A stretch of DNA of 64,000 nt from Raillietiella orientalis (GCA_036172245.1 JAYWIR010000013.1:3472001-3536000), one strand, 5' to 3'; shown: positions 4,258 through 41,900, counted from the stretch's first letter. Program-made: numbers and translations. The notes: generated from the letters alone by a model not told the origin.

Positions 4258-7200
4258 TCACTTAGGTTTGGTTTCCTGGTCAGTAACATAACGTATGAAA
4301 ACACTATCTTCTAGCTGATTGTCTGCTTCAATTTCTTTTTCATGCAAAAAGGAGACACCAATTGCTAATACAGAACCATCGTGGCTAAAACTAAGACTGG
4401 AAATGCTAGTATGGTATTTATGAAATTGACATAATCGTTTCTTGTTGAATCCATCCCAAATATTAACGTAACCATCTGAGCCTCCAGTTGCAAACGTGTT
4501 GTATGTATTATGGAAACTGAATAATAATTAAGGAAAAAACACCTGATAGCAATCCATACCTGATAGCATTCACTGGAAACACTTTCTCGTTTCCATCCTC
4601 CTTAATTCGATGGCACTTAAAAGCATACTTCTTCTTTTGGACTTCTGGGCTAGGATCCAAATATTCTACTGCAACCCGTCCCTCAATGGAGCTCAAAACA
4701 TAACCCTTTGGAAAGTTATTTTTTCTAACATAAATTCCACAAATTCTCACTTGTCTATTTGGGAAGCAACGAATGCATCGTGTCTGAAATTTTAAACTAG
4801 AATCTCGTTTTTGCATGGGGTAAGCAAGATTATTGAGATCCCAAATGTACACTCTTCGTTTGGCTGTTCCCACTACCAGCTTGTCTCCACTTAAGCCCAT
4901 GGTATAGACCTTCACCCTTCAGTGTGATTAATCAATTGAGGAAACAAAAACTTTACTCTTTCAGGTTGACTGAGATTTCCTAACTGCGTATTTGATCTTG
5001 GGTCCCACAATTTTACAGTAGCATCCCAGCTGCCTGTTATGACACAATTTTTTTCTGATGAAAACTCAACGCATTTTATGGGCTTTTCATGAGTTCCTAC
5101 AACTAATTCTAAAAAGGAGAAAAAAAAAAAACATGCATTTGTGACAAGTTCACACCATACTTCTGGATTCACTTTTCTCATAATTAAATGGTGTTTGTGA
5201 AAGTAATAAGCATCAATTCAACACATATTCAACTAAATGATTCACCATTATTTGACTAGCTCTATATGATGGCTCGATATTTCGCTCGTTGATTTTAATT
5301 ATTACTTGTGCTTAATGAATGATTTTTTTTTCGACCAGTAATTAACATTAACACTGATACATGTAGAAAACAAAATACACGGAACATGCACATTTCAGTA
5401 ACAAGGCATGTGAAATGAATTTAAATGTATCATGCATGCTTATATTTGTCTTTCAAAAAGAATGAAATAAAGATCATCCCTTTATAACAGCTTGCTAGGT
5501 GCCATGCTATTTGGGCCAACATTTATGCAAGAATCATGACACTCTTTTCTTAAACTAAGCAGTTAAATATTGTACCAATCTTATGATCAAGTTGCTCATG
5601 TTTTCTAGCAGTCTTTCTTTAATTTCATTACAGTTGCGTTTAAGGACTTATGGGATAGATTAACAAAAAGACATCGTGGGAAACTAAAGTAGGAAACTAC
5701 AAACAAAAGTGATAAGGGAAATAAATTACTGTTAACAAGAATTATTAATGTTTTTCCACTGCTGTTATTTTATTCACTTGTCCTTAGCAATCTAGGCAAC
5801 TAATCTGATGCTCTACCTGTGCAATGTTTGTTTGGTTATAACTTTACATTCTCATGACCCCAAGGATACCTTGGGTTTTAGTAGTAGTTGATTTCATGCA
5901 TTGTTTATTTTGCTCCCTTTGCTCAGTTAATGGGATAATTAGTACCATTAAATGAGTTCTTTGGATGTCTATTAATTTTGGGGAATTGATATAAACACAA
6001 AGCTATCAGTTTAGAGTGATTATGCCTTAAAATAATTGACCTAATATCAGTGCTAAAATGTGGATAGAAAAATAGAGGGTAAAAATAGAAACAATAAAAA
6101 AAAGCAGGCATTTCAAAAAACATGCAATAAGTTTGGATGCATAGATTAATGCATACACAATCACTAAACCAGAAATAAATATGAATACATACTTAAATTA
6201 ACAAAACAGGAATCACGTATATGCTTGAGATTAGTTGATTGAATATAAATTAGTTGTGAGAATCACAGACCACTATAATTATCGACATCATTTGGTGGAT
6301 TAACATAAATAAATGCTTACAAATGGGAGAACAAAGGTACTCAGAAAATCTCAGGATATACACAAATCATTAGAGAATAAAAATGTCAAATCTCAGGGCA
6401 CTCAATGCATGGGTATGATCAGAAAAGTGTAAAAAAGAACGAAAGATTGAAAAAGTCCTTTCTCTGGGTAATTCGTGCGTAAGGCATTGCAAAATTCAGG
6501 GTTCATAGGCAGGTGATCTTCAGTCATCAGATTAATTACAGTATTCATAAAGCAATACATTGCATGAGAACATAATTCGTAGTCTACAAAAATGTGTATT
6601 CTACAAGGTTGTCGTAATTTCTTCAATGTATCTCTTGTTTTTGTATCTGATTTTCATGATTCTTTTGTTTGTACAAATACCCTTTGTTTCTACAAATGTT
6701 TAATTATTTTTCTCATATTGAGTCTCCAACAACTGAATGATGGGGGAGGGGGACATTTTCTGATGGAAACTTCTACTGTGCTCATCATTTCATCAATCAT
6801 GCTGAGGTTTGTTAGTGACAACAAATGGATGAATGTGGAGAACCCATGTTCAAACACTCTATATCCCCACAATGTGCATATTTGTAGGTTTCTGACAATG
6901 CGCCCATTCTCTAAAAATTGACAGGATCTAAGCTGGGAAGAATGGGATAACAAAAGTTTCAAAAATGAAATTCTGTTTAGTGTAAACTATGGAAGGAAAG
7001 AAAAAAAATATTTTCAGAGAAAATACAACAAAAACGCGAACAAATCTACATAGTTATATGCCAGCATTTATTCAAATGAATTTCATGTTTCAAGTAAACT
7101 AATATCAGCCAGTGTTTCACATTGATTAACACTGGACTCATGCAAACTTTCTATGAAGCCCTCCTATCATACAATACAGAATACAACATCATACGGATTT

Positions 7201-8871
7201 TTCCAGAAATTATACCCAAATAGGGTCAATGGACAAGCACACAATTTTCTTCAGGGATATTAAGATTTGCCTGTTTCTAAACATCTCTAAGAATTTCTAA
7301 GAATACATGTTTCCACTGATCTCCAAAATTAAATGCCACAAAATGAAATCATCTACAAGCTTTGAATGCACATCAAGCAACTAACAGCCTGTTCATGGGA
7401 TCAACTGAAATATCTGCTAGGCTTTTTTAAATCTTATGCAACAAATCAAAAATTTCACTCTCATATTCCTACTGCACAATTTAGTTATCTGCACAGAAAT
7501 AGAAGGGCTGGAAGTTGATGGGGAACAGCATTCTTGTCAAAAGCCTAATCTCAGAAACCACTTCCACTTTTTGAACTTTCAACTTGTACCATGATAATTC
7601 TCACTGTTAGATGAGATCCTGAATAAACAACATAATGATTTATAATACTGTTAATTTCAAGATAATAATAATGTTGGAAAAGAATATAGGTTGCTTCACT
7701 TACTTTCTAATCTTGAGCATTATTTTACTGTGACTGGAAATTGAATTTGAATTCAATTTGAAATGTTTAAATTCAAAATTCTAAGCAACTGCTATCATTG
7801 AACACTTAAGATTAACAAACCTTTGGTAAGAATTATTTCTTTTCTTTAAATACTTATTAAGTAACTACCATTTTTTTTTACATTGTTTTGTATCAGTGGC
7901 CTCGGTTCAGTTCTTAAAACTGCTTACATGGTTTTGTTAGCAATGCATTTCTAGCAAAACGTGGCAAAAATTTTAAAAAATGGTAATTTCTTGATCCCTT
8001 AAAGTTAAGTACTGTGCTTCAGACAAACTTAAACTATCTCATGCTAAAAATATGGTTCATAATAATATATTTCTAAGAACATATTCATACACATATTCAA
8101 CCATAGAGATTTCATTATGCTAACAAAACTCACCGGAATTTGTATTGAGGTCATATATTTTCAGCTGACAATCAAGTCCACCACTGAAAGCATGTACAGC
8201 ATCCTGAAATTTTTATCAATGTACATCAGTTGGATTGAAATTTTTGACATTGATGAGCCTTGATTAAACGTTACAAGAGCGCAAAACAATCAAAAGTAAA
8301 CTTCTGCATGTTCAATTAACCATTAGAATGTTATAGGTGTTGTCCAAAAATATTTCATATCAGTAAAGTTAGTTGACAGAGAAAACGCTTTGGGCAAAAA
8401 ACCCTTACATTTGCAAATAGATGAACAAAACTATGAAAATAAGCTACACTAAGGAATGAAATTACTTTTCCTTTCTTTTTCTGACATGACAAAATGCAAC
8501 TTTATAATTATACTCATGCTTGTTACATCAGATTTCAAAATAGCCATTTAAAAAGTTGGAAGAGCTTCCTATTTTGAGTTTCCCTTGTTTTGAATCCCAT
8601 GAGTTTTTTGTTTACAAAAAAATGGTAACTCTAAGCAGGCATTTGAGACACATCTTCAGAGGCTCAATACCTGAAAGCAACAATCCAAAACTGGGCCATT
8701 GTGGGCATATTTCACTCGTAACGTATTGTTAATAACATCATACATTCGCACGCACGAATCCCACGAAGAAACAAGCAAGAACTGCGACGAATTTGGCCCA
8801 AACTTTACTGAGGATATGCCATCCGTTGGAGGACTTTTCAGTTTAAATTCTGTCCTTGGTGGCTCGTTCAT
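4258..8871 (-). CDS. BUB3: Mitotic checkpoint protein BUB3 (WD40), 6 coding exons, 328 aa
   Basis: Exons (minus): 8871-8671, 8203-8134, 5108-4957, 4909-4751, 4705-4560, 4516-4258. All introns are GT-AG and phase-consistent; the total is 987 nt. The translation carries BUB3 hallmarks: [81 protein letters not shown]. Confidence 0.97.
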
Positions 8872-9460
8872 TTTCTTGTCGGGGTTGTCTATATTTTCAA
8901 TGTCATTGGATAATGTCAGCAAATGTCAAGTTATTATTATTTACACTGTGGAGAACTCTAGACTGAAATTTTCCCCAATAACCCAACAGAAGCTCACGGT
9001 TATGAACGTTTCAAGCAATGCCGCATAATGCAGGGTAGCCTCTTACTAACATTTAGATCAGTGTTATAATAAAACGATAGGACCGTGGAAACTTGCATCG
9101 CATTTCAAAATAAAAAGACACTACAATTTTAAAAAGAATAGAAACTGCACTCGTGATATCTCTTATTAGCATAAGCTTATCAACTAAACTGTCGTCGTTA
9201 TCATACTGACCAATAAGCACCAATAGTTTAAATGCTCAATAGGCGAAAGATCTTAGAATGTTCTGTAAACCACCAAAAAACGATGATTATAGCAGCTTTC
9301 CGATTAAACAGCGAAATCTCACAAATGGAATCAGTATCGAATTACATTTTCAGCAAATGTGCATACAATAATTAATTTTAGAACATACGTACTAATACAA
9401 CCAGGCTATTAAGGATCTTTAAAGACGCTCGAAATTTTGAAATACTTTTCGATTCACATT
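8872..9460 (-). promoter_or_regulatory. Probable BUB3 promoter / 5' UTR region
   Basis: Local pocket of retained CpGs between two CpG-poor blocks. Acceptor-like gctgac...atatag ends at 8889, just before the ATG at 8871. Confidence 0.35.
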
Positions 9461-10417
9461 TTGTTTTTTGAGTTACTTCCACTGTAGGACATTCTATAAC
9501 TCAAGTGTGATGAGCCTTAGTCTGAAGGAGATGAGTTTATGATGTGAGAAAGTAATTGGATACCTCCTATAACCTGTAATCATGAAACTCTATACATAAA
9601 AAATGGCCATCAATTTCTGTAAAAACAGAAATACAGAGCTGTGAAAATTTTCTAGGAGGTAAAGAGGGTCACAGTGCAAACTAGTGAATGCATGTAGTCA
9701 TGATCATAATCATTTCTCTTGAAATCAGAGGGTTTTGCAGACCCCGAAAGAAAGTGGAATTAAGAATAGTGTTTCATTCAATACATTAGTTATTATTTTA
9801 ACATCTTTATTAAGAATTGATAATTTTCTATGAAGAGGTTACAAGATGAGAATAAGATGAATGTTACAAGGCTAGAGAGAGAAGAAGAATACAGATAACT
9901 CCCTTTTAGTAAGAAATGGCACTAGCTTTAACTGTATCGATAGTAGAAAACAATAGATACGATGTACACTGAAGAAAATTCCTTATACATTTAGGCTTTA
10001 TTCAAAAAAAACCATATGTCTATGACCGAGTATCCTTAAAGTACTGAAAGCAAAAACATTTCAAAAATGTCACAGAATTATCTAAAAATGAGGTTCTGAA
10101 ATTCATCATTATGTAGAAGCAGATCACCATATTGTAAGGAAAAACGCGGAAGAGAGGAAGAGAACCTATAAATTAAAAAGGAAAAAATTCAAAGGTGAGC
10201 ATTAACATGATTTCTGCACGCTTAAGGGGATGTTTGAGTAGTGCAGAAATTAGAAAATTTGAAACATTGAGACTTCACTTAAAATGGAATACCCATAGTG
10301 AGACAACCCAATGAAAAAAATTTTTGGCGTGGAGATAATGAAACCAAAATACTTTTACTTTTCATCATTAAATATATCAGAGAATATTTAAATATTCCAT
10401 GTGGAAAACTACAGATC

Positions 10418-10421
<4 letters not shown>

Positions 10422-10449
<28 letters not shown>
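10422..10449 (+). repeat. Poly(A) tract, 28 nt
   Basis: Visible directly. Confidence 0.95.
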
Positions 10450-10451
<2 letters not shown>

Positions 10452-13400
10452 CACGTCTCAACTGATGACGACGAGATGACAAGTCTCCTGAGCTCGAGTT
10501 CAACGGTTTTAAAGAATGATTTTTTTTGCAGCTGTTTCGGAAATTATGACTTATAGTTCATCTTTCATGGGATTTTTTTGTAAGAAATAACATTTTTTGT
10601 ATTGGTTGAGTTGCATAAAGGTTGCCCTCTCCCTCTTTCGGATTTATTAAATTCATTTTGTTGTTACTATGAGCAGTCCCGTGTGTTTCCAGATAGAAAT
10701 GATCTCCAGTTTTTTCTGCAAATTTGGAAATTTTGTTCTTATTTTCAAATATTTAGAAAATGCAGTTCATTACTGATGTATTTTTCATTTTGGTGTTGTA
10801 ACCAAGATAGGCATTCATTTTTGTGGTTCTGGTGTTCCTTCACTTTCCGTTTTTTGTGGACTTGGGATTATTATTGCATGTCATAATTATCCCCGCTTCT
10901 TTTTTTTTTTTTTCCTCCTTTCCTTTAAGTGTGATGTCTCGATTGAATTAATTGTGAAACCCAGTTCATCGGGATGAAATCTCAGAAGTGAGGGGAAAAA
11001 TAACTTTTTCAAGATTCCTTTCGTCTGAAATTTTTTTTTAAATGATTCGCTTTTGACATCTTGACTTTTCCCCTCGGGGCGGCGGAGACTGATGCCGTAT
11101 AGTGAAATCCTGTATGATTTGGTAGTTTCTTCTATTCGGGAGTGGTCCAGCAGCTGGTGATTTTTACTGGCTCGATCCAAGGATTTGCTTTTCCGATTGT
11201 TTTCTGGCGCTCAACCAAAGGCCCCCGAAGTGCACGTTGCAGCCAGTTGTAGGTGAAGGGTTGACTGCGGAGTGGCGTGTGCTAAATTACGTTTCCGTTG
11301 CTTTAGGTAATTTTCCCAATGAGAAACAGTTATTACAAAGAAAAAAGAAACAGTCGATGGGACTAGCGTCCTAGACTAAAGGATTCCCCTTTACCACTCC
11401 CTATTTTTTAAAGATGAGACCTTGCTTTATTGGTACTTTTCATTTTGCTTTCTCAGAGTTCAAGCAGATAAGAACAAAGTAAAGCTTAATCGATGCAAAT
11501 AAACCTGAAAACAATTTGTGAAGGAACTCCAGAAGATAAAAGAGAAGGATTGGGAATTTCGCTTGGGGCTCAGGAAGTCCTAGGCCACGCTCTGATAGCA
11601 GCAACGTGTTTCTCGGTGACGTGGTGAAACTTTTTTTTCCAGAAGATCTGTTTTCCTGCAGCAGCCAGAATAGAGTGAAGAAGTGGTTCAAGCATAAACA
11701 GAACGGTCGTTTGCACTCTTGAAAAATGGAGCGAAGGTGAGCGACGTCCGTCTACGAGATAGAGAAACATTGGTGCAGGCATTCCGCATGTGCATCTCAC
11801 ATCCGTCGGCCATTTGACACGCAAGGAGGTTGCAGCACGTCCTGCGAGGCGGCACGTGGGCTCCTGTGAATTCGGTGTGGCTACTTGTGCGTCAAGGGAG
11901 AGCTCTTCCTATCTAGATGACTTTATTTTCAACCTCATGGCGGCGGCTTCTCTGTAAACCCTCCGGCCATCCCTCGGGAGAACGGAAATGTCCCTCTTCG
12001 AAATCCGAGGAGGAAGTTTAATAGACATTTCGGTCGACATGGGTGTGAAATGGGCGACTTTAATCCGCAAAGGCGGACATGCTGTAACGCGATAGTGAAG
12101 ACGTGACACGACCTTTTCATCCATCTCCTTTTCCGAAGAGTTTGCTTCCAGGTCTTCCGTTACCAGCGTCAAATATCGGTTACTTGTGGAGCTTCGAGCA
12201 AGTGGCAGCTCTTCCAGGTATCTCTCGACGCGGGATTTCGCCTTTTGCGATTCCAATTGGAATTGATTATTGCAATCCCGTGTCAGCCCATGTAGGCAAT
12301 TATCCCCCCAGCGAATGAATCCATTACCCATTTAGGCAATTATCAGGTACACAGTTGGTCCCAAGGGGAGGAAACATCCGGTCTTCTTGTAGACATCGCG
12401 GTTCGTTTAGTTGTCCCGTCGTTTCCAGACGCTCTCTGCTTGGTGCGTGGGTGCGCGGCTCGACTCCGTGCAGCGCACGTGTGTTGCTCATGTTGTCCGT
12501 CATCGTGGTCATCCCTGGCTGCATCCCCGGAGCATTTTCTCTTCTTTTCCTGCAGAGATGGTCGCGGAAGGATAAACAGCAGTGGGCTCGTTAGCCATCG
12601 AACGGCTCCTTCCTTTCCCTGTCTGCGATGCCCGTCCACCCTTTGCGTGCACTCTCGCTCGCCACCGTAGAAGCGGGCGAAAGCGGCGGCCACCTTCTGC
12701 GGTGCGCTCGCCCTCGTGTTGTTCCCCTGCCCCCCGTCCCCTGGCGGACGTGCATTTGCTGGCACCCACGTAAGCCTTGCCGAAGGTCCCTTTTTTTCCC
12801 CCTCCATCCGTTCGACGATCTCCTCGTTCCTCTTCCCTTTGACCTCCCTCCTATTCGCGCTCGTTCCTCTTCCTGCTAGTGCGTCTCTGGCGAGCTGCTC
12901 TTCTACCCTGCCAAGGCAGATGCAGGGAACCTTCGAAAAAGAAAATGCTCGCTCATTTCGCCGCCGAGGTCTCCGCACACACTCCAGCATCCCATTATTG
13001 CCGTGGCTTCCAACGGAGGGGAGGAGGATAGGGGGGGACAGAGAATTCGAACCGGAACCACGATCGATTTTCGGAGAGAGAGCGAGGCTGTGGCCGCGGA
13101 CGCCCTCCGACTTTTCCGAGTCGGCGCTTCCTGAGCGCACTGATGAGACTTCCGCCCTCCTCCCTTCCCTTCCTGTGCGCGCACTTCCGCCGCTTTGCTC
13201 TCTCGCGTCTCGGAAGATCCCCTCTCCTCCATTGAGGCTTTTCCGACGGCGGAGCAAAGCCTTAATCACCAGAGCTCCTCCTGAGGGGACGTACCGCCGC
13301 CCTCGCAGCACCCTCTTGGAGGAGGAGGGGGAAGAGCAAAAGGAGAGAGGAAAAAAATAATAATTCCCCCTCCCCTATACATCTCTTCGACCTCTTCGGC

Positions 13401-14744
13401 ATGGCTCCAGCCCTCTGCCTGCTGCTGATCCCAGAATCGGAGATGGGAGAATTCCGGGGCGTTCGACTTTTCCCTGTGGACATGTCCGGCGATGCTTCCG
13501 GTCCAACTCTGCTGAGGTCGCCTCTGCCGCCGTCCTAGCAGAAGCCGAGCGGGCGCGAAAACAAATTCGAGTGTCCTCTCGAGGCAAAATACTGCTCCAC
13601 GCCTCGAGGAAAGGGGGAGGGAGGCAGCTTCCGGCCTCCTGGGGAGTTTCGGGGAAGGGTGAGGCAGGCGGATGTGCTCCTCCCCTCTCGCGCCCCGGCG
13701 GACACCGAAAGGAGTCTGCAGCCCTCTCCGTCGCTCTCCGCTTCCAAGCGGATGCTGGGAATGGATGTGGGAAACCCGTGTGAGAGGAGAGGAACGTCCA
13801 GCACCCTCCTCACCCCCAGGACGCGCACACGGGCAAGTGCGATCAGCAGTCTGACGAATCCTCCATAGCAGGTCCTCCAGTCAGGCAACGCTCCCTCAAC
13901 CCGGTGATGCCCTACCCGCTGACCATGGAGGCAGGACTCCCTAGGGATCCCTCAGGGAATTCCACTCCCATCTCCCCACGCCTTCCTTCCCTCCTGAGCA
14001 GCACGGCTAGGCGGGGTCCTGTGCTCTCCCTTCCCAGCCTCCCAAAAGAACTTTCCTTCTCGGACAGGTGGATGGGTATAGCCCACGCGAGGAGGTGCCC
14101 TCTTCCGCTCTGTGCTGCTCAGCTCTAGGAGGTGCCGGTCGTCTCTAAGGAGGCTCTCATGGCGGCGGACTCTAGACGAGGCGTCGAGCGACTCCCTCGA
14201 CTGCATAGAGGGAAATCCGAAACGCTGGTTACGCGCCCCTAAGAGAGGGCGAGAGTTCTTCCGGCAGGAAGGGAGGAAGGGCAATCGTGGCAACAGCCCA
14301 AGAACAGAACGGAGGCCCACCCGATCTGTTGACGACTCAGTCTGTATTTACAATTGCGAACTTCTTGGAAAAAAATAAAGTCCAGAAAAAAAATGCATAA
14401 AAAATTCTAGATTTGTAAGCATGTACACACACGGAACAGAAGAAACGTACATTTGCAAGGTCTTCGAAGGCATACAGCTTGATGTTTTTTAAACTGCTTT
14501 TTCTTTTTTTTTTTTTCAGCATCGGACTAGACTGGCAGGATGAGCAGAGAGCATCGCGTCGCGGTGTATCAAGGGCTCTCTCTCCCTGAGTTGCCCTTGC
14601 AAGTCCACCGGAGGAGGGCAGCACCAGCTCTCAGAAAAATTTTCGGCGCAGTTCGACGGAGAGTGGGGTCTCTGCGGAAAGCGACCGTGGTGCCTCGACC
14701 GCGTCGCAGCGCGTCACCCGGGCCAACGGCGGCCGTGGAAGATC

Positions 14745-17627
14745 CTATGTCTGCCGGTAGCTCCCTGGTGAGGCGTGGAGGGCCTGCGGCGGTGGCGGTG
14801 GCGTCGAAGAGCCGTACGCGGGCACCTCCAGGTACCGTGGCAGCTTCTTCTTGAAGGTCCTGTCTGCCGTCGCCGTCGAATCCTTGAGTAGGTCATCTGG
14901 GGGCGAACGGGGTCAATTGGGGCTGCTGCGGGAGGAATAGGGGCAGCGCGCCCCCCACCTACCTGCGCTCGACACCGGCGGCATGGAGAGGTAGATGAGG
15001 CCGATCACGGGCGGTGCCGACGGCTGGTCCGCGTTGAGGTTGGGCAGGCTCTGTGAGTCTCTCTTGCTGGAGGCCAAGCTATAGTGCGATAGACCTGGGA
15101 AAAGGGGGAGATGCAACCTTCGTTCCCATGGTGCGCGCGTGCGCGCACGCGGAGTGCGTCGGCTACGGATATCCTCTCCTGCTTCCGGAGAGGGGAGAAA
15201 AAGGTCTGGAGGGGAAGATGCCTGCGCGGCATCCCACGCCGCTCGCGCGACCCCCTTCAAAGCACCGACTGCTGTTTAGACGCGCGGGTCGTGCAGAACA
15301 CGTGGGCGGCAACGGGAAAATCCACCTACCGTGAGTCAGCAGGACGCGGTGGGATGAATTAGCTTCATCTTTCGCCAAGACGATGGGGAAAGGTCCAAAC
15401 GAAGGGTGCTCGTGCCTCTGCTTTCTGCAGAACCGGTAGTAGAGGAAGCACATTACCATCAGGAACAGCAACGAGAAGATGGATATCCCGATGGAGATAC
15501 CCATGAGGACCTCGGACTGGAAGGGGACAGAGAACGCCGCTGCAGTGTACTGCCGGATGGGTTTGGTTCCGGTCACCTGCGCCGCATTCTGGTTCAAGAA
15601 ACCCTCGTCATCGAGTAGCGTCCCGGGGTCAGCCTTGTCCGAAAATAGTCGTTTTTTGGGGATGATGTTGTGGGTGCTCAACGAGTACTCGGGGCTCATT
15701 GAGATGTCCGAAAAAGGCAGCAGTCCCACCTGCGGAAGCAGTCCCCCATCCTGTTTCCGAGGAGAAGGGTCAGACCTGCAGAGTGTAGAAATTCTCGGGC
15801 AACAGATGCAGCGTTGAGTGCGTTTTGCCTGTGATGACGTAACCCTGAATTCCTGCCTCGGGGTCACTGTGTTCCCAAGTCAACATGTACCAGGGTTCGC
15901 TGGAGTCGTCACGGTGCATGTCGTTCCAGGTCATGAGCACGGCGACGAGGCCAATCTGTTCGCTCGCACGTACATACTCCGGGTGCAGGTTCCATTCTGG
16001 AAGCTGATCCAATGATTCAGAAAACAAGCGGTTGGCAAGCGCCGAACGAAGAGGAGAGAGAGAAAGTCATTCCGTTTTCGCGCATCCTCGTCGGGAGGAG
16101 CAGGAAGTTTGGTCGCCTGGCAGCACTCCGAATTTTAATTTCCAATGAATAGAGGAAAAGTCATGCTGGCAACCCTGAGCGCGCACTACCGGGGAGCGTT
16201 CGAACACAAAAAGCAAGATGCGAGCGCGCTGGCAGAATTTGTGGCAGGAGGGAGTCTGCAGGGGGGATGGGGGAGACGTGCGATCTTTCTAATGCCCACA
16301 GAAGAACCCGAAAATTGCGCGCGCTGCTGCCAGTTTGGGGTGCTTCTGCGCAGCTCGCAGAACGCCCGCAAAGCTTGAAAAAGGATCTCACTTTTTTTTC
16401 TTCAGCTTCTAGGGTCGTGCTTCTTTCAATAGGGTGCCCCCACCTCTCTTCCGGTGTCTCAGGCGTGGTGTACACTGCTATCGTCCCAGCGGCTCCGTCA
16501 GAATGACTGTAAGGGAAACTGTTGCTGCCGTCGCTAACGACGACCTGGTACGGTTTTGTCCAATTCCTGCTGCTCCCTTTCTCTCCAAGGGAGGAGTGGT
16601 TGATGTTAAGAGCAGGTAGCTCGTACACCTTCTGGGTTTGAGCTATCGCGCCACTAGCATTCACCGCCAGCAGCTTGAACCCCACCGTGCTGCTAGGCAG
16701 CTTGACGGGAATCGAAGCAGACATTTCCGTCGTCTGGAAGAAACCGACTGGTGTTCCCAGAAGGCAGATCCTATTAATTCAGGGCAGACCTGGTTCAGCT
16801 CCCTCCAAGGATCGAAAAAATTTCTGCTCTTCAAGAACAGAACAAACACCACAGCTTTCGTTTGCTGTCTTATAGCTTCCGCTTCATCCAGCATTGGTTG
16901 TTTAACATATGATGCAACATATGTTGTTAAAGAGGACCAGTCTACGGTGTGGTTCTGGGGGTGAACCACCATCTCTCGCGAGAAGTTATACGTCTTTATC
17001 CACTTGATGGGGTCACCATTGTCCGGACTGTGGTAATAGGTGCAGCTCTCCTGGCAACCCGGAAACTTTTGAGAAAGCACAAAAGGAAAACAAACAAACA
17101 AACACGTTAGGGCGAGCTACCAGGGATAGGGGCACTTACACAAATGGTTCTATCGGAACACATTGCCGACAAGAACCCTCCACTTGTCAGTCGGTAACAA
17201 AGATCCCAACACTGCAAAGTACGAGAACAAAATGAGAAAGATAGGTGCGCCGCGGGAGGAATCGTGGGGGGATGCGAGGAAAATACGAGGTCAGGGATGT
17301 TCCGCTCACGAGTGGCAGATTTTCGTTAAAAGGGAAGGAAAGGAAAATTGGACAGAGCGTCGTACCATGTTACATTCTAGGTTCCGCCGGCAAGAGTCTT
17401 GCGATCTGGAGCTGTAATCTTGCACGAACTGCGGTGAGGAGATGCATGTGAAAATGCTGCTGCCTCTCTCGGCTCGGGAAGGGGAAGCTTACCTTGTTGA
17501 TGCACCTCGCCCTGCACTGCGCGACCATGATCCCGGCGAAGATGGGAGCTTTCACGCTGTCCAGGGAGTCACTGGCCACGAGGCTGGCTAACACTGAACT
17601 CGCAATCAAAATCACGAAACGACCCAT
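14745..17627 (-). CDS. Type I transmembrane protein: signal peptide, Cys-rich box, FN3-like region, TM helix, Pro/Ser-rich tail (fend-like / anosmin Cys-box-like), about 579 aa
   Basis: Exons (minus): 17627-17493, 17428-17366, 17211-17140, 17065-16790, 16733-16392, 16003-15776, 15729-15577, 15516-15330, 15094-14963, 14896-14745; all GT-AG and in phase. Signal peptide MGRFVILIASSVLASLVAS. Cys box AQCRARC...SCRRNLECNMCWDLC...MC...ICFPGCQESC. FN3-like VLMTW...YMLTW...LLPENFYTLQV. TM LMGISIGISIFSLLFLMVMCFLYY followed by RFCRKQR. The family call is from recollection; the exon 5/6 junction and the last two exons are less certain. Confidence 0.75.
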
Positions 17628-17814: not shown

Positions 17815-17820
17815 GAATGA
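17815..17820 (-). promoter_or_regulatory. Possible arthropod initiator (TCATTC) for the fend-like gene
   Basis: Matches TCAKTY about 190 nt upstream of the ATG. The motif is short and could be chance. Confidence 0.25.
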
Positions 17821-18628
17821 GTAATTCGACCCGGTCGGTTTCATTGACAGATTCGGCAGATCATTAACGGTTGTTTGCCCATAAAAGCTAATTATCACCT
17901 TTGCTCACGGGCTGCATACGTTGCGATTGCGTTTCAGCTCCTACTCGAGTTGCCCATCAAAGTCTTTTCCAGCAATCACTCGGCGCATATCTCTACAGTC
18001 CGGGGACAAACCTTCTTCGAAAGGACAGAATCCCTCATTCTGTTTATTGGCGTCTAAGTAGATGTGTCGGTACCACAAAGATTTTCAACCGGAAACGGAG
18101 CACCTACTTCCTTTGCAGGTGGACATAATGTCCTCGAGACAGAAAGAAAGGCAATTAATGCTCGAATTTCACGCCCCGCCGTGCAGAGCACAATGGGGAA
18201 AATCGGAAACTTTCGGTAAGAGGGGGTCTGCTCGGGGGAGGCGGATTCATCGTCAGAATCACGCATGGACATGCGTGATTCTGATTCTTCGTTCCGTCCG
18301 TAGCGCCGCCCTCTTCCAGAGCTGCTGTTTCTCTGCTGAGGTGCCGGAGCTGTCTCATCCAGGAAGATCAAACTGCAGCTCTTGTCTTTTCCAAGAAAAA
18401 CAAAACAAAAACAAACGAATGGACGATTCGGTTGTATTCTACGTAAACGGAGCGAAACGGAAGCTCTTTGCTCTTTGCGCCTTTGCAACTTAATGACGAA
18501 AACAAAAAGTTTTCTCCGTTCCTGCCGGGAAAGGACACGGCTCGAGTGCTCGACACGGGAGCTCGGAAAGACCTGTGTTTAATGTTCCTGCACTTCATTT
18601 GATCCATCCGGTGGATTCAGTACGGACA

Positions 18629-18632
<4 letters not shown>

Positions 18633-18662
<30 letters not shown>
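18633..18662 (+). repeat. (CA)15 microsatellite
   Basis: Visible directly. Confidence 0.95.
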
Positions 18663-18666
<4 letters not shown>

Positions 18667-30399: not shown

Positions 30400-30960
30400 T
30401 GTATTCACAAAGGCGTCGTATGACTATTGGTAACATTGCCATACAGACTTCTGATGAAGAAAGGTGAATTGTTTGTATGTAGCAGAGAATTCAAGGAGGC
30501 GTTACGCTGTGACAACCGAGGCTTTGGGGATTCCTATTCCTCCACTGATGCACATTATCATGGTCACACCGTCTGCCATGAGGTGAGAATGGTCGTTATC
30601 CGTATTGCAAGTTGCCGAGTTCAAAGATGAACATGGCATCACTTGAACTCTGTGTCCGCTGTTTCAAGCTTGAGGTGCCCCTGCCTTGCGACGAAGTGCT
30701 GTTCAAAGTCTCCCCATCGAAACCCATCCTGGTCAAGGAAAAAAGACCATGGCTTGCGCTGGGCTTTAGAAGGACCTCAAGGCACTCATTCACTAGCAAG
30801 TATCGGGCTGGAACTTCTTCCCCTTTGCAGGGGAGCTAGAAGCAAGCAGGAACGATACTATAAGGGTTGGTAGCGATGGAACGAGATATTGCTGCCTATT
30901 TCGAACAGCAGTACGAAACATTCTCGTTTGTACATCGAAAGATATGACAACCTGGTTCAC
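30400..30960 (-). mobile_element. Possible decayed hAT-family transposase fragment
   Basis: FVLLFEIGSNIS (like FSLLxDESTDIS), followed in frame by LEVLLK..SHGLFSLTRMGFDG (like the GxxFDGA motif), with internal stops. Confidence 0.33.
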
Positions 30961-32620: not shown

Positions 32621-32626
32621 TTTATT
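32621..32626 (-). promoter_or_regulatory. Candidate polyadenylation signal (AATAAA) for neurexin
   Basis: tttatt on the plus strand, about 320 nt downstream of the neurexin stop, near the end of the AT-rich domain. Confidence 0.5.
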
Positions 32627-32948
32627 ACATTTTCTTAACATGTCACAAGATCAATAATTGTAACCAAAATGTCGAATTCCTGGGGACCACGAAGTTAACC
32701 CTTATTTTCAAACAAAAGTGAGGGAAATGATTTTTTTTTGTTTTCTAAGTCTTTCACAGATTTTATGCATACATAACAGCTAATATTGAAATGAGTAAAC
32801 AGTAAAATTCTACTCTGTATTCAAAATGTCCATTGAGGGAATAGTAATAACCACATGTTATTTCAAAGGTTTAAAACTGCAACAAGATTGCATCACATCC
32901 AGGTGGATGATATTCATAGTATTGCAGTGAAGAATCAACACTGCATTG

Positions 32949-35900
32949 TCAAACATACCACTCTTTTATATTTTTGTTGCCTATTTTTCCTTTTTCTGTT
33001 TCAGTCATTGTTTCTGCATATGCAGGAGCATTGGGCGAAACCATGGATGTATCCGAGGGTACAAATTGATAGGTCTTGCCATAGTCCATTTTTAAGCGAG
33101 CTTTCTGTCTATCACTGAACCGCAGTATTATCAGAATCACAATAATGACTGCAATGAGTGCACCTGCAATTATACCTATAATCAGAGCAGCGTTTTCCGC
33201 TTCCTCTGGAAGAATCCTAGATTCATCAAGAGCTTTATATATGTTCTTGTGTTCTTTGGTCGTATAATCCGGCCAAAATGGATCCAATGAGAAATATGAG
33301 GATTGGGATGTCTGCATAGGATGAAAACTTAGAGTACGCAGACTGAAAACACTAGAGGCACTAGTTTTTTCTTTAATTGAGGCTCTTGTGGTAGAGAGAG
33401 AAAAAACTTTGGAAGTCTTAGGAAGTTGAGAAATTTTATCAGTGATTAAGGCAGGTACAACAGACTGAGTGGTGACTAATGTAGTTTCTGCAATTGTTGT
33501 TGATTTTTGTTTCAAAACTGAAGAATGCGTAGACACAGTACTGCTCTTATCTGAAAAGGAAGAGAACAAATCTCAGAAACTTGATAATCCATCAGCACTC
33601 CACCTGTCTGCGGCATGTTCCAATATGTGACCAACTCTCCATTACCAGAACTTACTATACAATCTTCATCATCACAAGGTACAAAAAAAGGATATGTTTC
33701 TTTAAACGTTGTCAGTGCAGTTTGCTGAGATGGACGAGTGGAAGGAGGCACAAATATAGGTGTGATAAGATCATCTACATTAATGAGCTTAATATTAAAT
33801 TTCTTTCAAACATTAGAGTTCACCTGATTCAGAATTTCTATCAGGTATGCAATCATCTTCATCATCCTGAGATTCACAAACCCCAGAGTAAATAAGATCA
33901 TCGGTTACACTAAGTTCATCTGCTGGTGTCTTTAGATATGCAAAAATGCATGTCTGCATAACTTAGAACTGCTACTCACTCTCATCATGGTGTCCAAAAG
34001 ATCCAAAGGATGTTCCTTTGGAGATGATGAAACTGATTTGACCTGGTGAACATCACCTTGAATTAAAATTCGAGGATCCTTTTGTGATGCCGCATCAAAA
34101 ACTCGAAGTCCATTGACAACCAAACCAGACATTACACCATGAAATGGTTGCTCAACTGAACGTGTCAAAAGATCTAATTTTCCACCAACATGAATCTGAT
34201 TTTGACTGTTAAATACTGTCAACTGGCGACCTATACGTGACCGGATCAAATGCAAGCATACATAATAAATACAAATAACACGGACCTGTAGGATAATGCA
34301 CATTTATATCTGCACTATCAACTTGCAAAGTGCTATTGGCTCCTGAGCGGGTGAAACGCAAAACATGATAATGTCCATCACTAACATTAACATGTTGCTC
34401 AATTATTTCATGTTCTTCTGTTCCCATATTATATAACACATGAACATGACCACTAAGCTTACAAAGCATCAACATAAGAAAACAATTCAGCGGAAGTAAC
34501 TTACCACACTTAGAGATATGAAATCATGGCTTGTGCTGCTGTATATTTGAAGAAGAACTCCATTTTGTGCCTCTGTGACAAACCCAACAGCAATGAGGTC
34601 ACCTTTGGTATCTGGACGTTTGTTTATAGGAAAACTATAAATTAGCACTCCACCATTAGAGGCAAATTCGTAAGCTGTGGATTCTATGAGATAAAACCAT
34701 TAATGTTTGCATTTATTGCAACTATTACAAAAATAATGTGCACAGTTTCGAAAAAGCACTACTGACAATAGTTCCAATACAAAAATTTAAGGTAAGCTTA
34801 ATACTTTAACAAGTTTGGAAAACACTTGATGAATTTCCTCTGAGATCAGTTACCTCCATATACAATTACCATCTCATATATTACAAAACATTTTTTTTTC
34901 AAGGTTTATAAAACATTCAAAGAATACAAAAGATACATCAGCACTAATGCGAGTGTTGACAACAATACAATAGATGAACCATGCAATCTTTGGGGCATGA
35001 TAAACGTTTTTCATGTTTACATGGCAGCCTTAATGGATTTAAATACCTTCCTGAATATTTAGTCGAATACATAATTATTTTATCACTGAATTCTCTTATA
35101 CTTTTCATCAGTGAAATGGATCACCATAGCATATGTGTTGGAGTATAAAGCCAAAGGGAACTCAATTACTCTTTCATTCTGGTTATGAGAAAAGTTAGAG
35201 GGAGCTTTCATAGGCCTTTTTCCTATCAATATTATTCATCCGATTAGCTTTAACATTTTCTTGTCGTTCCCAGATTATTTAATATATTATTCCATATCTG
35301 GATTTCAAATACAGCAACTTACGCTAACATATTTGCAGATTTGGAAAAGCTGTTCAATACCTTTTGATTAACAAAAGGGTCAAGAATGATCACAAGAAAT
35401 AGTTACAACTCGTGTTCGCTTCACAGGAAGAAAACAAAAAGAACAAACACGTAACAGTTTCATATCCCCTCTTAAACTATGATATACAGTCTGAAAGAAT
35501 TTCATTTGATACACATATACTAATCGTGAATTCGAAACAGTTATGGTTCTACAAAGATTTAAATGAGAGATGTGAAAGTTCAAATGTGCTGGAATACTCA
35601 GAAATTAGTAAAGAATTGTTAATACATGCGGTCGGGTCGAAGCTATTAATATTTAGACTTTAGGTATTCATGCACTTGTTATTGTGCTTACAGAAGTGAG
35701 GGCACGGCAATTAGCAGTCATAATGATAGCATGCCATGGTGTTTCAATATGCACAAAGTGAAAGCTAATTCAGTGACGCAATTTTCTTTTTCAAGTCTTA
35801 CATACAATGAAATTTTTTTAAAGTTAATTAGTTTTTTATCTATATTAGCCATTAAATGAAACAGCCAAGATACTTTTCATTCAATGTTCCAAGTAGAATA

Positions 35901-38900
35901 GGCATTTCAGAAAATTCTATTTTGAGGGATTGTCAAAACCAACACAAATATTTAGATAAATTGTTTTTCAAGCAAGTTCAGCAATTAATGTACTCTTTTG
36001 TTGTAGAACAAGTTGGAACAATCCATGATTCTGACACAAATAAAATGATTTGAAACAGCAAAATAAAAACTGAACACATGATTAAAACAAAAAGCATAAG
36101 CTGGTCTTTGAAAATTCGAAAGTTAGTTACCATCAGGGAAATAAATCTAAACTACGCATTTTTTTTCTTTGAAGAAAAAACAGTCACTTTATAAACCATT
36201 TTGCTGAAATTACCTCCCAAGCAAAAAGTACATTTTGAATCAAAGCTAACATGATATTCATATAAAATCCACATAAATTATCAGAATTAAATAACGTACC
36301 ATCAGAACAGGATATTCCTGAGAAACTTGTCATATCACAATCACAAGAGTAAGAATTTAATTGCTGTATACACGTACCACCATTGTGACAAGCAGTGCTG
36401 CTGCATTTGAATCTATGGTCTAAAATGATGTGAACATGCATACTAGCCAAGCAATGTGTTACAAAATTGTTAAGCTGAATAATACAACAGTACCTTGTGC
36501 ATCAGTAAATAGAATATACAATATAAGATAGGAAAAAATACATACTGTAAATACAATGAATGAATGCATGCATTTTTAGATAAACATTTGTGATTTTGAA
36601 GTAATGATGTAAAAACAGGGTATTGGCATAGGAAAAGTTTCATCATGAAGACTTTGAAGATGATGAAATGGAGTTTCCATATTTGTTGAATTACAATTCT
36701 ATGCACAAAACATTTAATTTATCTACCTTCGCAACCTTTTGCTATCATTGGGCTTGAAACTATTGCATCACCTAACAGATCAATAACCTTTCCATTTAAT
36801 TCTATGGTGGCTAAACAACCTCCAAATCCTCTTTTTGAGTGGACAGATTTTGGCAAGTGTTCAAACATGGATTTACGTATTCCTCCTAAATAAATTCAAA
36901 TTATCACAAAGACACAAATCAAAATTATCAATAATAATTTTACATGATTAAACAATAACTCAATGATCACAATGACAAGGTAAATTTGATTAAAGATAAC
37001 AATGATTCACATATTCATCAAATACATGCAATGCATATTTATTCCAGCACCAAAGTAATACATACATATATGATCTTGTGCATGTGCTAAACACATGGAA
37101 AACCATTTTTGAGGATTTAATAAATTTTCCTTAAGGATGAAATGTTAGGAACACTTGGTTTCTCATGTGAGAGTTCGAAAACAAGCAGAAACAGTGCATG
37201 TCAATAGAAATGCACTTGAATTTTCTTATGGACTCCATTTATAAGACTTAGGTGATTACCTGGTCTTTTAATGCATGCTTTTTGTAAATAATTGAGTTCA
37301 TTGTCAATAGAAATAAAAGAAAAATTCATTGTTTATACAATTATATGGCTACTCTCATGTGGTGTAAAATGCAGACCATTCTTTGGAGAATCCAACAAGC
37401 TCTTCAATCTGGTGATTTTCCTTGTAAACGAACATACTACTTGGGTAAAAAATTAGAAACTTCAGTATGTAAAAATTAAAGCTACAGATTCTGACATCAG
37501 AACCTTCCAAGTTTCTCTGAAATGTTATTCTTTTTCTGTTGAACCAAAAGTAAGATTCATTCATTCGATTCTCAGTAAAAACTGATCTTTTAATTCAAAA
37601 ATGAACGAAAATTTTAAACATTTCTTATTCATTTACATATCATCAGTATCTGGTTTTCCTTTCCATGAGAATGCGCTGAAACCCTGATGCATTCTCACTG
37701 GTATTTCAGTGACACTGTTTACAATTCTCTCCAGTTAGCATGCATGCTAGCCTGCTAATTGACTGCAGTTATTCAACATTCCAATTATTTTCACTGGGTA
37801 TATGCAAAAAAATTCTCGTTTTCTTAAAACTCATCGATGAATTCCGGAATTGTTTTTTTCAATTGAACCCCATCATGCAGCTCGATTTTCCGATCAGTGC
37901 ATTTTCTAGGATGAATTACATGAACTTTACATTCAGTTTGAATGTTTTGCAATAGGAAAGAAGCGAAGCTTTATATCTTTTGCATTTTCAGTAATAAAAA
38001 GTACGGAAAAACATTCATTCTGATAATTTCTGTTTTCTGAAAAAGACTCAGAAACACACAAGTTTTTACGAAATCCAATTATTTGGAAGGCAGTTGAAGT
38101 TTCTTATGGGGTCCATTTATAAGACTTAAGTGATTCAAATGATTCACTGTTTAAATCCTCAATTCGAGTTCTGATTACCTAATGTCTGATGCCTGATGGT
38201 CTTTTAATGCATGCTTTTTATAAATAATTGAGTAAATTGTAAATAATAATTGCATTTCTCATATCCACAAAAGGTGCTGTTATTGTTATCAAGACCATAT
38301 TTATTTCAAGATTTGATTTAAAACTCCCTTTCATTTTTTCCATGGATCTGTAAATAGTGGAGTGAATAGTGCAGCAATGTTTTTTTATGTTACTGAAGAG
38401 CTATTCACTCCCCATCTGCAAAGATGCTGACTAAAGTTGAAATGAGCTGCAAACACATTCAGGGCATTAGAATTTTGGGGGGGGGGGGGGGGGGATACTC
38501 TTATATACTTTAATTTTGACTTTCTTCTTTGGTTTTCAGGTTTAAAGTTTCCTTTTTGTTCATATTAAAGGTATCCTTAATACTTATCTTACAAGCAATC
38601 ACTTGAAACAAAGGGTGGTGTTTTTTTCAATGTGGGTAGCTTTAAATGGAATTTTTTTTTTTTTTGCAAACAAAAAAGCCTATTCCTGCTACCAATTTGA
38701 AGCATAACTTATTTCAAACCTAATCATATCCGGAATTCCCCACTGCATTTCATTACTATCTCCAGTCTATCAAATGTTTAGTTTTAATGGAAAAAACTGT
38801 TACTTGAAAATCTATGCAATAATAAACTGCACATAAACGGACACAAGGAAAAGCAAGTATCTTACAAGAAAAAATGCTACATGGTCAACAATCCTAGGAT

Positions 38901-41900
38901 TCCTTGAGATCATTGTTTCAAACAGTTTGGCATGCAACAGATTTCAAAGTTATTGGATGATAAAATAAGCACTTTAACAATGCAGTAAAAACATATCTTA
39001 CCAATATACAAAACTCCAGTAAGGTCTAAATCATTTTCATTGGCCTTATATTTCATTGCATTCACAGTATCATCCACAATGAGCAAATACTGATGCAAAG
39101 ATTGTTGTTCGATTGAGACAGAATGCCATTTGTTATCATTCACACTTTGGATCATTCTATCTTGAATTATGGTTGTCTCATTCCCATAATTAAATAAATA
39201 ACGAATATGACCATTAAATATCTCTACAGCAATGAATTCTTGACCTTTTCCACTATTGAAAAGAATCAACCCATTTGCCTCAACTGTCTTTACTTGAAAA
39301 TGAATGCTGATGCTATAGGAGGATTTAAGCTGGGGAAGCTCCAAATGAGCATCTGTTGATTTGAAAGAAACAGGATTCAGAATAGTTTGCAGTTCTTTTC
39401 TCAGAATTTTGGCAGTGTTTGTTACTTCCGGTGCATAATAACCCCAAACAGATTTTTCAAAAAGATGCTGATTGTTAAATATCAACTGTTGCATAACTCC
39501 TATGAACCCTGGGCTTCCATGCACTGAATTGGTCACCAGCTGCAGATCATGCTCTTTTGAAACACCACCAACGTATAGCACATCCATTTCCATTGTCATT
39601 TCAGTTGCATTTACATCAACTTAAAAAAATACAAAGAATAAAATTGATTTAATCTTTTTAATACTTCTGCTTAGAACAGGAATCTCTTGATCAACACTCA
39701 GTTGTATATTCTGGCCTTTACGAAGAACTGTAACAGTATGCCAATGCTGATTGTTCAACTCTTGGCCGCAGAAGAGTACCTTACAAAAGTAACAGATATT
39801 CATTTACCAGTGTATGCTTACTTGTTCTTTAGTTCCCAATCGTGCTTCCATTCTAACTCTGCCCATCAGCAAATTAAGCTGAAAATGATGAGATGAAGAT
39901 TTGGCAGAGATTGTCAACAGAAGAGCAGATTGCTGAGAAGTACGAAAACGAAGAGATAGACTTTCGGCTTGAGATAAAAATCTTCCAACAAAGGAGTTGC
40001 TGAAATACTGACTTCCATCAAATCTTAGGGTGGTCGCTTCTGAAACCAAATGAGATTTAGAATGCATCGGAACGCATTCCATGGTACTAATCTACCTCTT
40101 TCACAGATAGGTCCTGTAAATCCTGTGGAAGCACAATCACAAATGAAATGATTCCAACTTTCCACGCATCTGCCTCCATTCAGGCAAGCACACTGGGATG
40201 ATACAACATGGCACGTGGTGCGAATGAAAGCTTTACTAATCAAATAAATCATCATTCACAACATCTGTCTAATTCACCTTCATTCTGACGTCGTGCATAA
40301 CTGGCTAGCTCTACCAGGTTTCCGTTTACAACAAAATCTCTTATGCACCCAACAAACCCCTGCCTGAGGCTGGCGGTCCATATTTCTGGAGGGATAGTCC
40401 GATTCACACGATCATAAGCTAAGCCCCCAACGAAAAGGATTCCATCCAAATCTAAGGAGCTGCAGTCACCTGAAAGAGTGCGATTTACTTGTCTGCTGCA
40501 ACTTTCCCGGCTGGTTTTGGAGCAGCCGGGCGGGAAGCCGACGGGATCCTTACCCGGCACCAGAAAGTCGGAGACCCTCCCGTCAACGGTCAAACGGCCT
40601 GTATTCCCATTTCTCGATAGAGATATTTGATGCCAGTGGCTGTCGTTAACCTGACGTACCGATCCTCTGATTTTCAACGGCTCGAGTCCCAGGCTCAGAT
40701 GCAAATACAGGTAGCCATCGATGATTTCAAAGGCAATGAAATCAGACTATGAAAACGCTGAGCGATTCCCCGGTCGCATTGTGCTTACTTCGAAAGCTTT
40801 CCCGTTATTGTACAAGAGGAACCCGTTTTCTTCTTTGGTGCGTATTTTGAAAGATAATGATCCCGTTAGCGGTGATCTCCAAGGTGGTAGCATCTGAAAT
40901 GAAAGCTGTGCATGAAAGAATAGAGGTGGAAGAATGCGTAATTTGGTTTAACGGTCGGCTGTTCTAAACGTTTCGCTGGAGAAAACGTTTATGCCGTGCT
41001 GCTGCAATTTTACGGATCGTCATACGGGCAAAGAATACAGGTTGTTGCACATTATCTTTTTTTTCCTGCAGTTCCCGCGAAATCACCGGAATTTCCATTC
41101 AGCTCAAGATTTCGAAGTCATTTTGGGTCCATGGGATCCCCGTCCTGGAGCCGACAGCTCCCGGGTAACAGTTTTCTGAAGAGTGGCAACCAGTTGGCAT
41201 CGCGCTCTTCGTCCACGTTTCTTCGGGACTTTCCCCAAAGTTGACATTTCCGCATGATCGGTCTCGGAGGGACCGAAACCGTTCCCGGAGGGTTCCCGGG
41301 GGTGGGGGCACGGCCGGGCGCGCCCCAGCCCGGAGGGAAGACGACGGGGGAGGGCCGAGCAGCGGAGCTTCGAGGGAACCGGGACAAGGGAGAGGCGCAG
41401 GCTCCGCTCGCATGTCATGTTGAGGAACGTGACCTCGGAATTGCTGCTCTGACGCACGATTGCCATTTTCTCCATCATGACTTGAAAACGTACATGTGCC
41501 ATTGCCCCTTTGAGTGAAAATTCAGCTCTGTGAAATTCGCGGATGTTGAATTGCTTTATTCGTGCATGCACGACTGACGGAAGACTGCTTGTTTTGAAAG
41601 ACCGCGTTTTCGTTCTCGCTCCTGAGCAGCATTCCGTGTCTGCACGAAAAGACGAACTCTTCACGCATTCGGAAACTTTGGTAGTTTCTCGTTTTCGTTG
41701 ACTGACGCAGAACGTCACATTCGGTGAACTTCCGAGGGAAATAATTTTTTTCAGAGAAAGGAGTATGCAATCGATCAGCTGTCTGAACTCCACGTTTACT
41801 GACATTTATCAAGTAATGAAGAGACACTAAAGTAAACAGTGAGACACGTCGTGGACCTCCCGTGGATATAAAACCAACTTTCGACCAGGTATTGGCTGTC

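Follow-up and report, generated by a model that had tools for sequence, protein, structure and literature searches.

The window analyzed here is a stretch of 64,000 nucleotides (nt; 64 kb) from the Raillietiella orientalis assembly GCA_036172245.1 (JAYWIR010000013.1:3472001-3536000). Three subjects lie on its minus strand, namely the gene for BUB3, a fend-like chain of open reading frames (ORFs), and an alpha-neurexin-like gene, and our concern is with their introns, in particular with a class of 42 to 50 nt (hereafter mini-introns) whose acceptors read AAG in seven of the 10 cases verified by homology. Animal 3' splice sites are nearly always taken to be YAG (Y, pyrimidine), an assumption built into gene finders and variant-effect tools.

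Genes and introns of the window

4258..8871, minus strand: BUB3 coding region, six exons and five introns, 328 amino acids (aa); spliced alignment, 5/5 homologues
15166..17116 (about), minus strand: fend-like ORF chain
32949..61148 (about), minus strand: alpha-neurexin-like gene, C-terminus ...EWYV; PDB match, tblastn and spliced alignment with six homologues

The spliced BUB3 ORF is complete from M to stop and is at most 73% identical over its full length to animal BUB3 (insects, molluscs, a brachiopod, and others). Identity to the 40 best-scoring of 120 homologues compared is 67-73%; these 40 span insects, a myriapod, chelicerates, crustaceans, molluscs, a brachiopod, and a nemertean, and arthropods, molluscs, and the brachiopod are at much the same distance. 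A BUB3 tree gave no resolved placement, the window protein sitting on a long branch, weakly near pancrustaceans. In the alpha-neurexin-like gene (hereafter neurexin), the translation of one exon of 235 aa matches bovine neurexin-1-alpha in the PDB with an E value of 1.5e-58. The neurexin protein is 27-34% identical to its 15 best-scoring matches, all of them long, multi-domain proteins, and at most 50% identical to any of the best 150 of 931.

Introns were located with a self-written protein-to-genome spliced aligner, which applies a mild donor-quality score and scores all AGs as equal, so that it neither favors nor disfavors AAG. BUB3 was aligned with five homologues taken from the 120 listed, and neurexin with six of the eight best homologues from an exhaustive representative search (931 proteins, E ≤0.001); a word-index search with neurexin gave three weak matches only. 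Around each mini-intron, every frame-compatible GT/GC-AG pair was enumerated as an alternative junction. The catalogue comprises 25 homology-supported introns and one fend-like intron, making 26. Fend-like introns were excluded from the statistics, except that the listed mini-intron enters the counts given for all 26, and three stretches of neurexin, namely its 5' end (upstream of 60527), a possible ∼30-nt exon near 42652-42686, and its last intron, were left uncounted.

By length, the 26 introns fall into 11 of 42-50 nt, three of 54-56 nt, one of 84 nt, and others of 307-5245 nt. The mini-introns (11/26, 10 of these in two genes) form a narrow class at the lower limit of length, apart from the long introns. 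An earlier note on this DNA, made from the sequence, had listed these 11 and had stated that they coexist with multi-kb introns; in the catalogue, the two kinds stand side by side inside the same genes. Its denominators (35 introns, 17 of them of 60 nt or less, and two AAG acceptors in 24 longer introns) could not be reproduced: 14 of the 26 catalogued introns are of 60 nt or less, and AAG ends one of the 15 that exceed 50 nt. The mini-introns are as follows, with the last exon bases in lower case before the slash.

4517..4559, minus strand: BUB3, 43 nt, cag/GTATGG...ATTCAG, phase 2, after aa 242; 5/5 homologues
4706..4750, minus strand: BUB3, 45 nt, caa/GTGAGA...CCAAAG, phase 0, after aa 194; 5/5 homologues
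4910..4956, minus strand: BUB3, 47 nt, aga/GTAAAG...GTGAAG, phase 0, after aa 141, lacking a pyrimidine tract; 5/5 homologues
15730..15775, minus strand: fend-like chain, putative, 46 nt, cag/GTCTGA...CCGCAG, GC-rich; ORF layout only
33775..33823, minus strand: neurexin, 49 nt, cag/GTGAAC...ATGTAG; 5/6 homologues
33930..33979, minus strand: neurexin, 50 nt, aga/GTGAGT...CTAAAG, the least certain AAG case; 3/6 homologues
34458..34504, minus strand: neurexin, 47 nt, gtg/GTAAGT...TGTAAG; 6/6 homologues
39620..39664, minus strand: neurexin, 45 nt, gaa/GTATTA...TTTAAG, 13% GC; acceptor 6/6, donor 5/6 homologues
39780..39821, minus strand: neurexin, 42 nt, caa/GTAAGC...TGTAAG, GTAAG at both ends; 6/6 homologues
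40231..40277, minus strand: neurexin, 47 nt, aag/GTGAAT...GTAAAG; acceptor 6/6, donor 4/6 homologues
40747..40788, minus strand: neurexin, 42 nt, gaa/GTAAGC...TCATAG; 6/6 homologues

All 11 stretches run from GT to AG on the minus strand, and the seven that the earlier note had quoted as ending in AAG do so, with the hexamers it gave: CCAAAG (4706), GTGAAG (4910), GTAAAG (40231), TGTAAG (39780 and 34458), TTTAAG (39620), and CTAAAG (33930). Acceptor-neutral spliced alignment reproduced 10 of the 11, the fend-like intron being without a homologue. Their removal restores the conserved frame and protein in 5/5 homologues for BUB3, in five or six of six for six neurexin introns, and in 3/6 for 33930. 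At the BUB3 junctions FPNRQ/GYVLSS (4706 intron) and QPER/VYTM (4910 intron), the sequence is unbroken in the homologues, in all of them at the former. In neurexin, splicing of 39780-39821 gives a peptide equal in length to bovine neurexin-1-alpha around LNDNEWHTV, the AAG of 39620-39664 is the sole in-frame acceptor possible, and a TAG 5 nt upstream of the acceptor of 40231-40277 is skipped and lies out of frame. In all AAG introns but one, the alternative junctions keep the same AAG, shift the protein length by at least two codons, give an intron of less than 40 nt, or depend on a GC donor. The exception is 33930, the only intron with a YAG alternative (CAG) of equal protein length: two of the six homologues choose 33975>33923 instead (GTAGCA...CACCAG), which has a poor donor, GTGAGT being the better one. 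Retention would put a stop in frame for 10 of the 11, the exception being the 45-nt BUB3 intron.

The layout of the ORFs makes the fend-like mini-intron plausible, and no other GT-AG pair of more than 28 nt ending in CAG or TAG joins ORFs 15773-16066 and 15166-15879; the remaining junctions of the chain are ambiguous. A word-index search found no homologue of the chain, no Atlas match exceeded 0.75, and the sole Pfam match was to Commissureless, at a sub-threshold E value of 3.3e-4.

Two other identities for the mini-introns were considered and rejected. U12-type introns would be recognized by an RTATCC donor together with a TCCTTAAC branch site, and none of the 11 donors reads RTATCC. The lone U12-like feature is in 4517-4559, where TTCCTTAAT (TCCTTAA), near the U12 branch consensus, stands 11-12 nt from the 3' end; as the donor is GTATGG and not RTATCC, we take this motif for a good branch site of the U2 type. 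A family derived from introners or transposons was likewise set aside, since the interiors have no mutual similarity (the best pairwise local score, 12, was equalled in 72 of 200 shuffles) and the BUB3 positions are common to other taxa.

GC content in 2-kb bins of the window ranges from 31% to 71%, and neurexin shows a steep gradient within the gene: its 5' exons and introns are of 55-71% GC, with long introns, and its 3' half is of 31-38% GC, where its mini-introns cluster. BUB3 is arranged likewise, with two long introns on the 5' side and three mini-introns on the 3' side.

Splice signals of the mini-introns

The introns set against the mini-introns include the following.

5109..8133, minus strand: BUB3, 3025 nt, GTGAGT...TTTTAG, AT-rich, strong T tract; 5/5 homologues
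8204..8670, minus strand: BUB3, 467 nt, GTATTG...TTTCAG; 5/5 homologues
34231..34285, minus strand: neurexin, 55 nt, cag/GTCCGT...GTATAG; acceptor 6/6, donor 4/6 homologues
34684..36299, minus strand: neurexin, 1616 nt, AT-rich, TAG acceptor; 5/6 homologues
36420..36726, minus strand: neurexin, 307 nt, AT-rich, TAG acceptor; 6/6 homologues
36886..39001, minus strand: neurexin, 2116 nt, AT-rich, TAG acceptor; 6/6 homologues
40040..40095, minus strand: neurexin, 56 nt, gag/GTAGAT...TTTCAG, donor -1 G; 6/6 homologues
40470..40553, minus strand: neurexin, 84 nt, GTAAGG...TTTCAG; 6/6 homologues
50587..55831, minus strand: neurexin, 5245 nt, AAG acceptor ...TTTGCCTTCCAAAG (CCAAAG), pyrimidine fraction 0.81, in GC-rich DNA; 6/6 homologues

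Among the 25 homology-supported introns, AAG ends seven of the 10 that are 50 nt or shorter and one of the 15 that are longer (Fisher p = 0.0017), the one being the 5245-nt intron at 50587. The -3 bases of the 10 verified mini-introns are seven A, two T, and one C, and GAG ends none of the 26 introns. With the comparison confined to local GC below 0.42, the same cut gives 6/8 against 0/7 (p = 0.007), and neurexin alone gives p = 0.007. The contrast also persists, at p = 0.0013-0.0085, when 33930 is dropped or when the last neurexin intron is scored as a long intron with either AAG or CAG. On a flat prior, the 95% interval for the share of AAG in the mini-intron class is 0.39-0.89, and the usual few percent would fit poorly with such a range. 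YAG acceptors and G at donor -1 are found in all three introns of 54-56 nt and in the 84-nt intron, and the change therefore looks sharp near 50 nt.

A different picture is obtained when the acceptors are set against local composition. Within these genes, the transcribed strand of the long introns in AT-rich DNA holds 359 NAG triplets, which divide into 38% AAG, 22% TAG, 22% CAG, and 18% GAG. Against 0.38, the seven of 10 AAG acceptors of the mini-introns give p = 0.04, and against 0.46, the share when GAG is excluded, p = 0.12; the longer introns, at 1/15 against 0.38, are depleted of A (p = 0.008). As the excess of A is marginal in the one class and A is depleted in the other, position -3 of the mini-introns looks free to be A, T, or C, and that of the longer introns looks confined to a pyrimidine. 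These counts fit a relaxation at -3; they do not demonstrate a preference for A.

Metagenome contigs served as a control. A scan with the last exon of BUB3 yielded 60 loci, none above ∼77% DNA identity and none a close relative, and the BUB3 protein of the window was aligned to 20 of them. Removal of near-duplicates (L001, L017, L029, and L030) and of intronless loci (L013, L045, L048, and L054) left 12, in which 34 of 38 introns end in YAG and four in AAG, two of the four with doubtful donors. The aligner therefore returns the normal animal pattern elsewhere, and the mini-introns differ from the control share of 4/38 at p = 0.0004. At one control locus (L014), a 57-nt intron after aa 257 of BUB3 reads GTAAGA...TATAAG, so short AAG introns occur sporadically elsewhere.

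The same loci bear on the age of the BUB3 introns. Other organisms have introns, of 57-1888 nt, at all five positions (after aa 67, 90, 141, 194, and 242), and the position after aa 194 is common to 12 of the 20 control loci. Since the positions recur with longer introns, the BUB3 mini-introns are best described as shrunken old introns and not as new insertions.

The donor side of the mini-introns is also altered. Position -1 is A in six of the 11, as the earlier note had reported, against none of the 15 longer introns (p = 0.002); within AT-rich DNA, -1 is A in five of eight mini-introns and G in seven of seven longer introns. AAG acceptors accompany five of the six -1 A donors, and the association has p = 0.24. 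Acceptor -3 and donor -1 are thus two separate consensus positions relaxed in the one class, and such joint relaxation is what recognition aided by length would allow.

At the 3' end, the weak pyrimidine tracts pointed out by the earlier note are present in the two BUB3 AAG introns (pyrimidine fraction at -20 to -4 of 0.38 for 4910 and 0.44 for 4706), and the fraction is 0.56-0.81 in the other five AAG mini-introns. The AG used is the only one in the last 11 nt or more of nine of the 11 mini-introns; the other two have an extra AG 5 or 7 nt upstream, out of frame. Six of the seven AAG introns have a YTNAY-like motif at a distance of 9-19 nt from the 3' end, and the fend-like intron has none, with chance matches to be expected in AT-rich DNA.

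Taken against these results, the earlier description of AAG as strongly enriched stands relative to the YAG norm and to the longer introns, and becomes marginal relative to the local NAG background. Its caveat that most of the introns lie in AT-rich domains loses force, the contrast surviving in such DNA, and its caveat of a small sample remains. Relaxed recognition, which it had proposed, agrees with acceptor -3 and with donor -1; a preference for A was not shown.

Recognition of the shortest introns

We propose that the mini-introns are old U2-type GT-AG introns shrunk to the minimum, with their ends paired, splicing directed to the first AG that follows a nearby branch point, and the reading of -3 and -1 relaxed, an account that could as readily prove wrong as right. 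Old introns at conserved positions would have been trimmed to a minimum workable length of about 42-50 nt, at which both ends are probably recognized jointly, across the intron. The branch point would lie ∼9-19 nt from the 3' end, which would leave no room for a real pyrimidine tract or for the normal footing of U2AF, and the first usable AG beyond it would be taken in the second step. The bases read by U2AF1 (-3) and by U1 (donor -1) would then carry little weight and would drift to the composition of the AT-rich surroundings, with AAG acceptors and A/GT donors as the outcome. If the account were right, it could be expected to hold across the genome.

Several published findings bear on these steps. 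The usual efficiency of acceptors is CAG > UAG > AAG > GAG (PMC11802449). Wild-type U2AF1 binds A at -3 ∼2.8-fold worse and hardly uses a minigene AAG site, and its S34F/Y mutants accept A, C, or U, and not G, at this position (PMC7505975). At human short introns with truncated pyrimidine tracts, SPF45 replaces U2AF (PMC8363638), and the efficiency of splicing by intron definition varies with intron length (PMC3488318).

A number of points weigh against the proposal. The 50-nt cut was chosen post hoc, the signal comes from two genes and 10 verified mini-introns, the branch points are motif guesses, and junction use is read from protein homology only. Seven of 10 is nominally above the neutral background, and pure drift may therefore not suffice. 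The 5245-nt intron at 50587 uses AAG despite a good pyrimidine tract, so that tolerance of AAG may not be specific to length. In Drosophila, according to PMC3488318, short introns differ only slightly from long ones in their splice signals, and relaxation would therefore not be general to short animal introns. With the cut placed at 60 nt, AAG ends 7/13 introns against 1/12 (p = 0.03), and BUB3 alone gives 2/3 against 0/2 (p = 0.4).

The last two figures also speak for a combination of composition and small-sample chance, the strongest of the other explanations, if an unlikely one. AAG is the commonest NAG in DNA of 31-38% GC, where most of the mini-introns lie, at 38% of triplets in the local AT-rich introns, and with G left out the excess in the mini-introns does not reach significance; the contrast would then be a fluke found post hoc in two genes. 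Such a fluke leaves unexplained both the absence of AAG from the seven longer introns in the same AT-rich DNA and the shift at donor -1 in the same class (6/11 against 0/15). Real acceptors, moreover, usually stand far from background, as the control loci do with 34 of 38 YAG, and the flat-prior interval for the share of AAG (0.39-0.89) argues in the same direction. That the models themselves are wrong, with true junctions at nearby YAG acceptors or with the stretches being coding, is very unlikely. The equal-length CAG alternative at 33930, the stop-free 45-nt BUB3 intron with its length a multiple of three, and the dependence of all junctions on homology would agree with it; the failure of the alternatives at all AAG introns but 33930, the agreement of 5/5 and 6/6 homologues, and the stops that retention would introduce in 10 of 11 all argue otherwise.

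The intron at 50587, confirmed by 6/6 homologues, would be at home under a lineage-wide, length-independent change in the reading of the 3' splice site. One form of it would be a zinc-finger-1 pocket of U2AF1 tolerant of A at -3 in the manner of S34F/Y, mutants that barely discriminate at -3 except against G (PMC7505975), and AAG would then be frequent wherever composition permits. We consider such a change improbable: YAG ends 14 of the 15 introns longer than 50 nt, including all seven of those in AT-rich DNA, and a change in U2AF1 would not yield relaxation at donor -1. It is slightly less probable still that a factor or RNA contact actively selects AAG, possibly as part of a GTRA(A)G ending, with A at -3 acting as a signal. 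The excess over the 38% background (p = 0.04) and the pairing of five of six -1 A donors with AAG would agree with selection of this kind, as would the endings of four of the seven AAG mini-introns (39780-39821, 34458-34504, 40231-40277, and 4910-4956), where GT[AG]A(A)G resembles a donor; of 136 background AAGs in the local long introns, 13 have this context (p = 0.002), and two of the four begin and end with GTAAG. That pattern was noticed after looking, the association of -1 A with -3 A is not significant, TAG or CAG ends three of the 10 verified mini-introns, and the class has no common internal motif or sequence similarity. A bolder form of the idea, which we regard as improbable, would give introns of up to ∼50 nt a separate splicing mode, with AAG preferred (often as GTRA(A)G) and read by something other than canonical U2AF1, be it a factor like SPF45 or a zinc-finger pocket that has changed, so that one genome would hold two acceptor codes chosen by length.

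Known systems and further features of the window

Short-intron populations, intron definition, and short introns independent of U2AF are already known. Among the nearest known systems are the human short introns dependent on SPF45/RBM17 (Fukumura et al. 2021, PMC8363638), which are well below 100 nt with truncated pyrimidine tracts, as here, with examples of 43, 49, and 56 nt. Those introns are spliced without the usual footing of U2AF65 on the tract, as the mini-introns may be. The mini-introns resemble them in length (42-50 nt), in pyrimidine fraction (0.38-0.81), and in branch-like motifs 9-19 nt from the AG. They differ in that AAG is never mentioned in the text of that article, where splice sites are described as only somewhat weaker. 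The short class also makes up 11 of 26 introns here and is not a rare subset, and dependence on SPF45, recognized by retention upon its depletion, is a biochemical property, whereas the present class is known from its sequence.

Short introns of C. elegans carry a strong UUUUCAG. In Drosophila, C. elegans, and fungi, a narrow population of short introns stands beside long ones and length aids recognition (PMC3488318 and PMC3033335), as would be the case here. The signals of short and long introns in Drosophila are said to differ only slightly (PMC3488318), while in the window the shortest class differs at -3 and at donor -1. The U2AF1 S34F/Y mutants (Yoshida et al. 2020, PMC7505975) match the window in that AAG is usable and G rejected, as in the 26 introns without GAG; they are somatic mutants that affect all introns, unlike the present case, in which 14 of 15 longer introns stay YAG. 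The tiny introns of ciliates and nucleomorphs, with weak signals (mentioned in the reviewers' comments of PMC3488318), likewise sit at a lower length limit with ends of low information, but those genomes have only tiny introns, and here mini-introns alternate with introns of 2-5 kb in one animal gene.

Full-text literature searches found no animal described with AAG-rich shortest introns; supplements, which lie outside such searches, could hold tables of the -3 base. The main text of a survey of intron signals in 61 species (PMC3033335) does not mention AAG. With 10 verified introns in two genes, we regard the finding as a solid local observation, drawn from predicted junctions, and as a good lead, and not as a demonstrated property of the lineage.

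If AAG did prove to end at least a third of the shortest introns, annotation pipelines would misplace many junctions in such genomes. The window would also be a natural case of length-dependent acceptor reading within one genome, would bear on the need for U2AF1 at very short introns, for which human cell lines have so far been the main source of evidence (SPF45, S34F), and would show the fate of splice signals once old introns reach the physical minimum.

Some further features of the two genes deserve record. The 45-nt BUB3 intron at 4706-4750 would, being stop-free in frame, add 15 aa if retained. In neurexin, the 84-nt intron at 40470-40553 is likewise a multiple of three and stop-free, ORF 40255-40746 reads through it, and its retention would lengthen a LamG/LNS domain by 28 aa. 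Both stretches may be optional in-frame segments. The last neurexin intron (33546-33655) contains two nested in-frame pairs that differ by five codons, in a non-conserved region: an intron of 110 nt whose donor is a perfect GTAAGT (33655) and whose acceptor is ATAAG (33546), and a GTAATG donor (33645) with a textbook TTCCTTTTCAG acceptor (33551), an intron of 95 nt. A possible micro-exon of 27 nt (50345-50371), with a flanking intron of 54 nt, and a possible exon of ∼30 nt (42652-42686), with GAG or CAG acceptor variants, were each chosen by part of the six homologues; these may be alternative segments or alignment artefacts.

Elsewhere in the window, 52 further ORFs of at least 110 aa matched no Pfam family, and an Rfam search of the window gave no match. 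Microsatellites of (CA)n/(TG)n lie at about 3220-3300 and 18600-18660, and appear as HTHTHT and CVCVCV runs in ORF translations.

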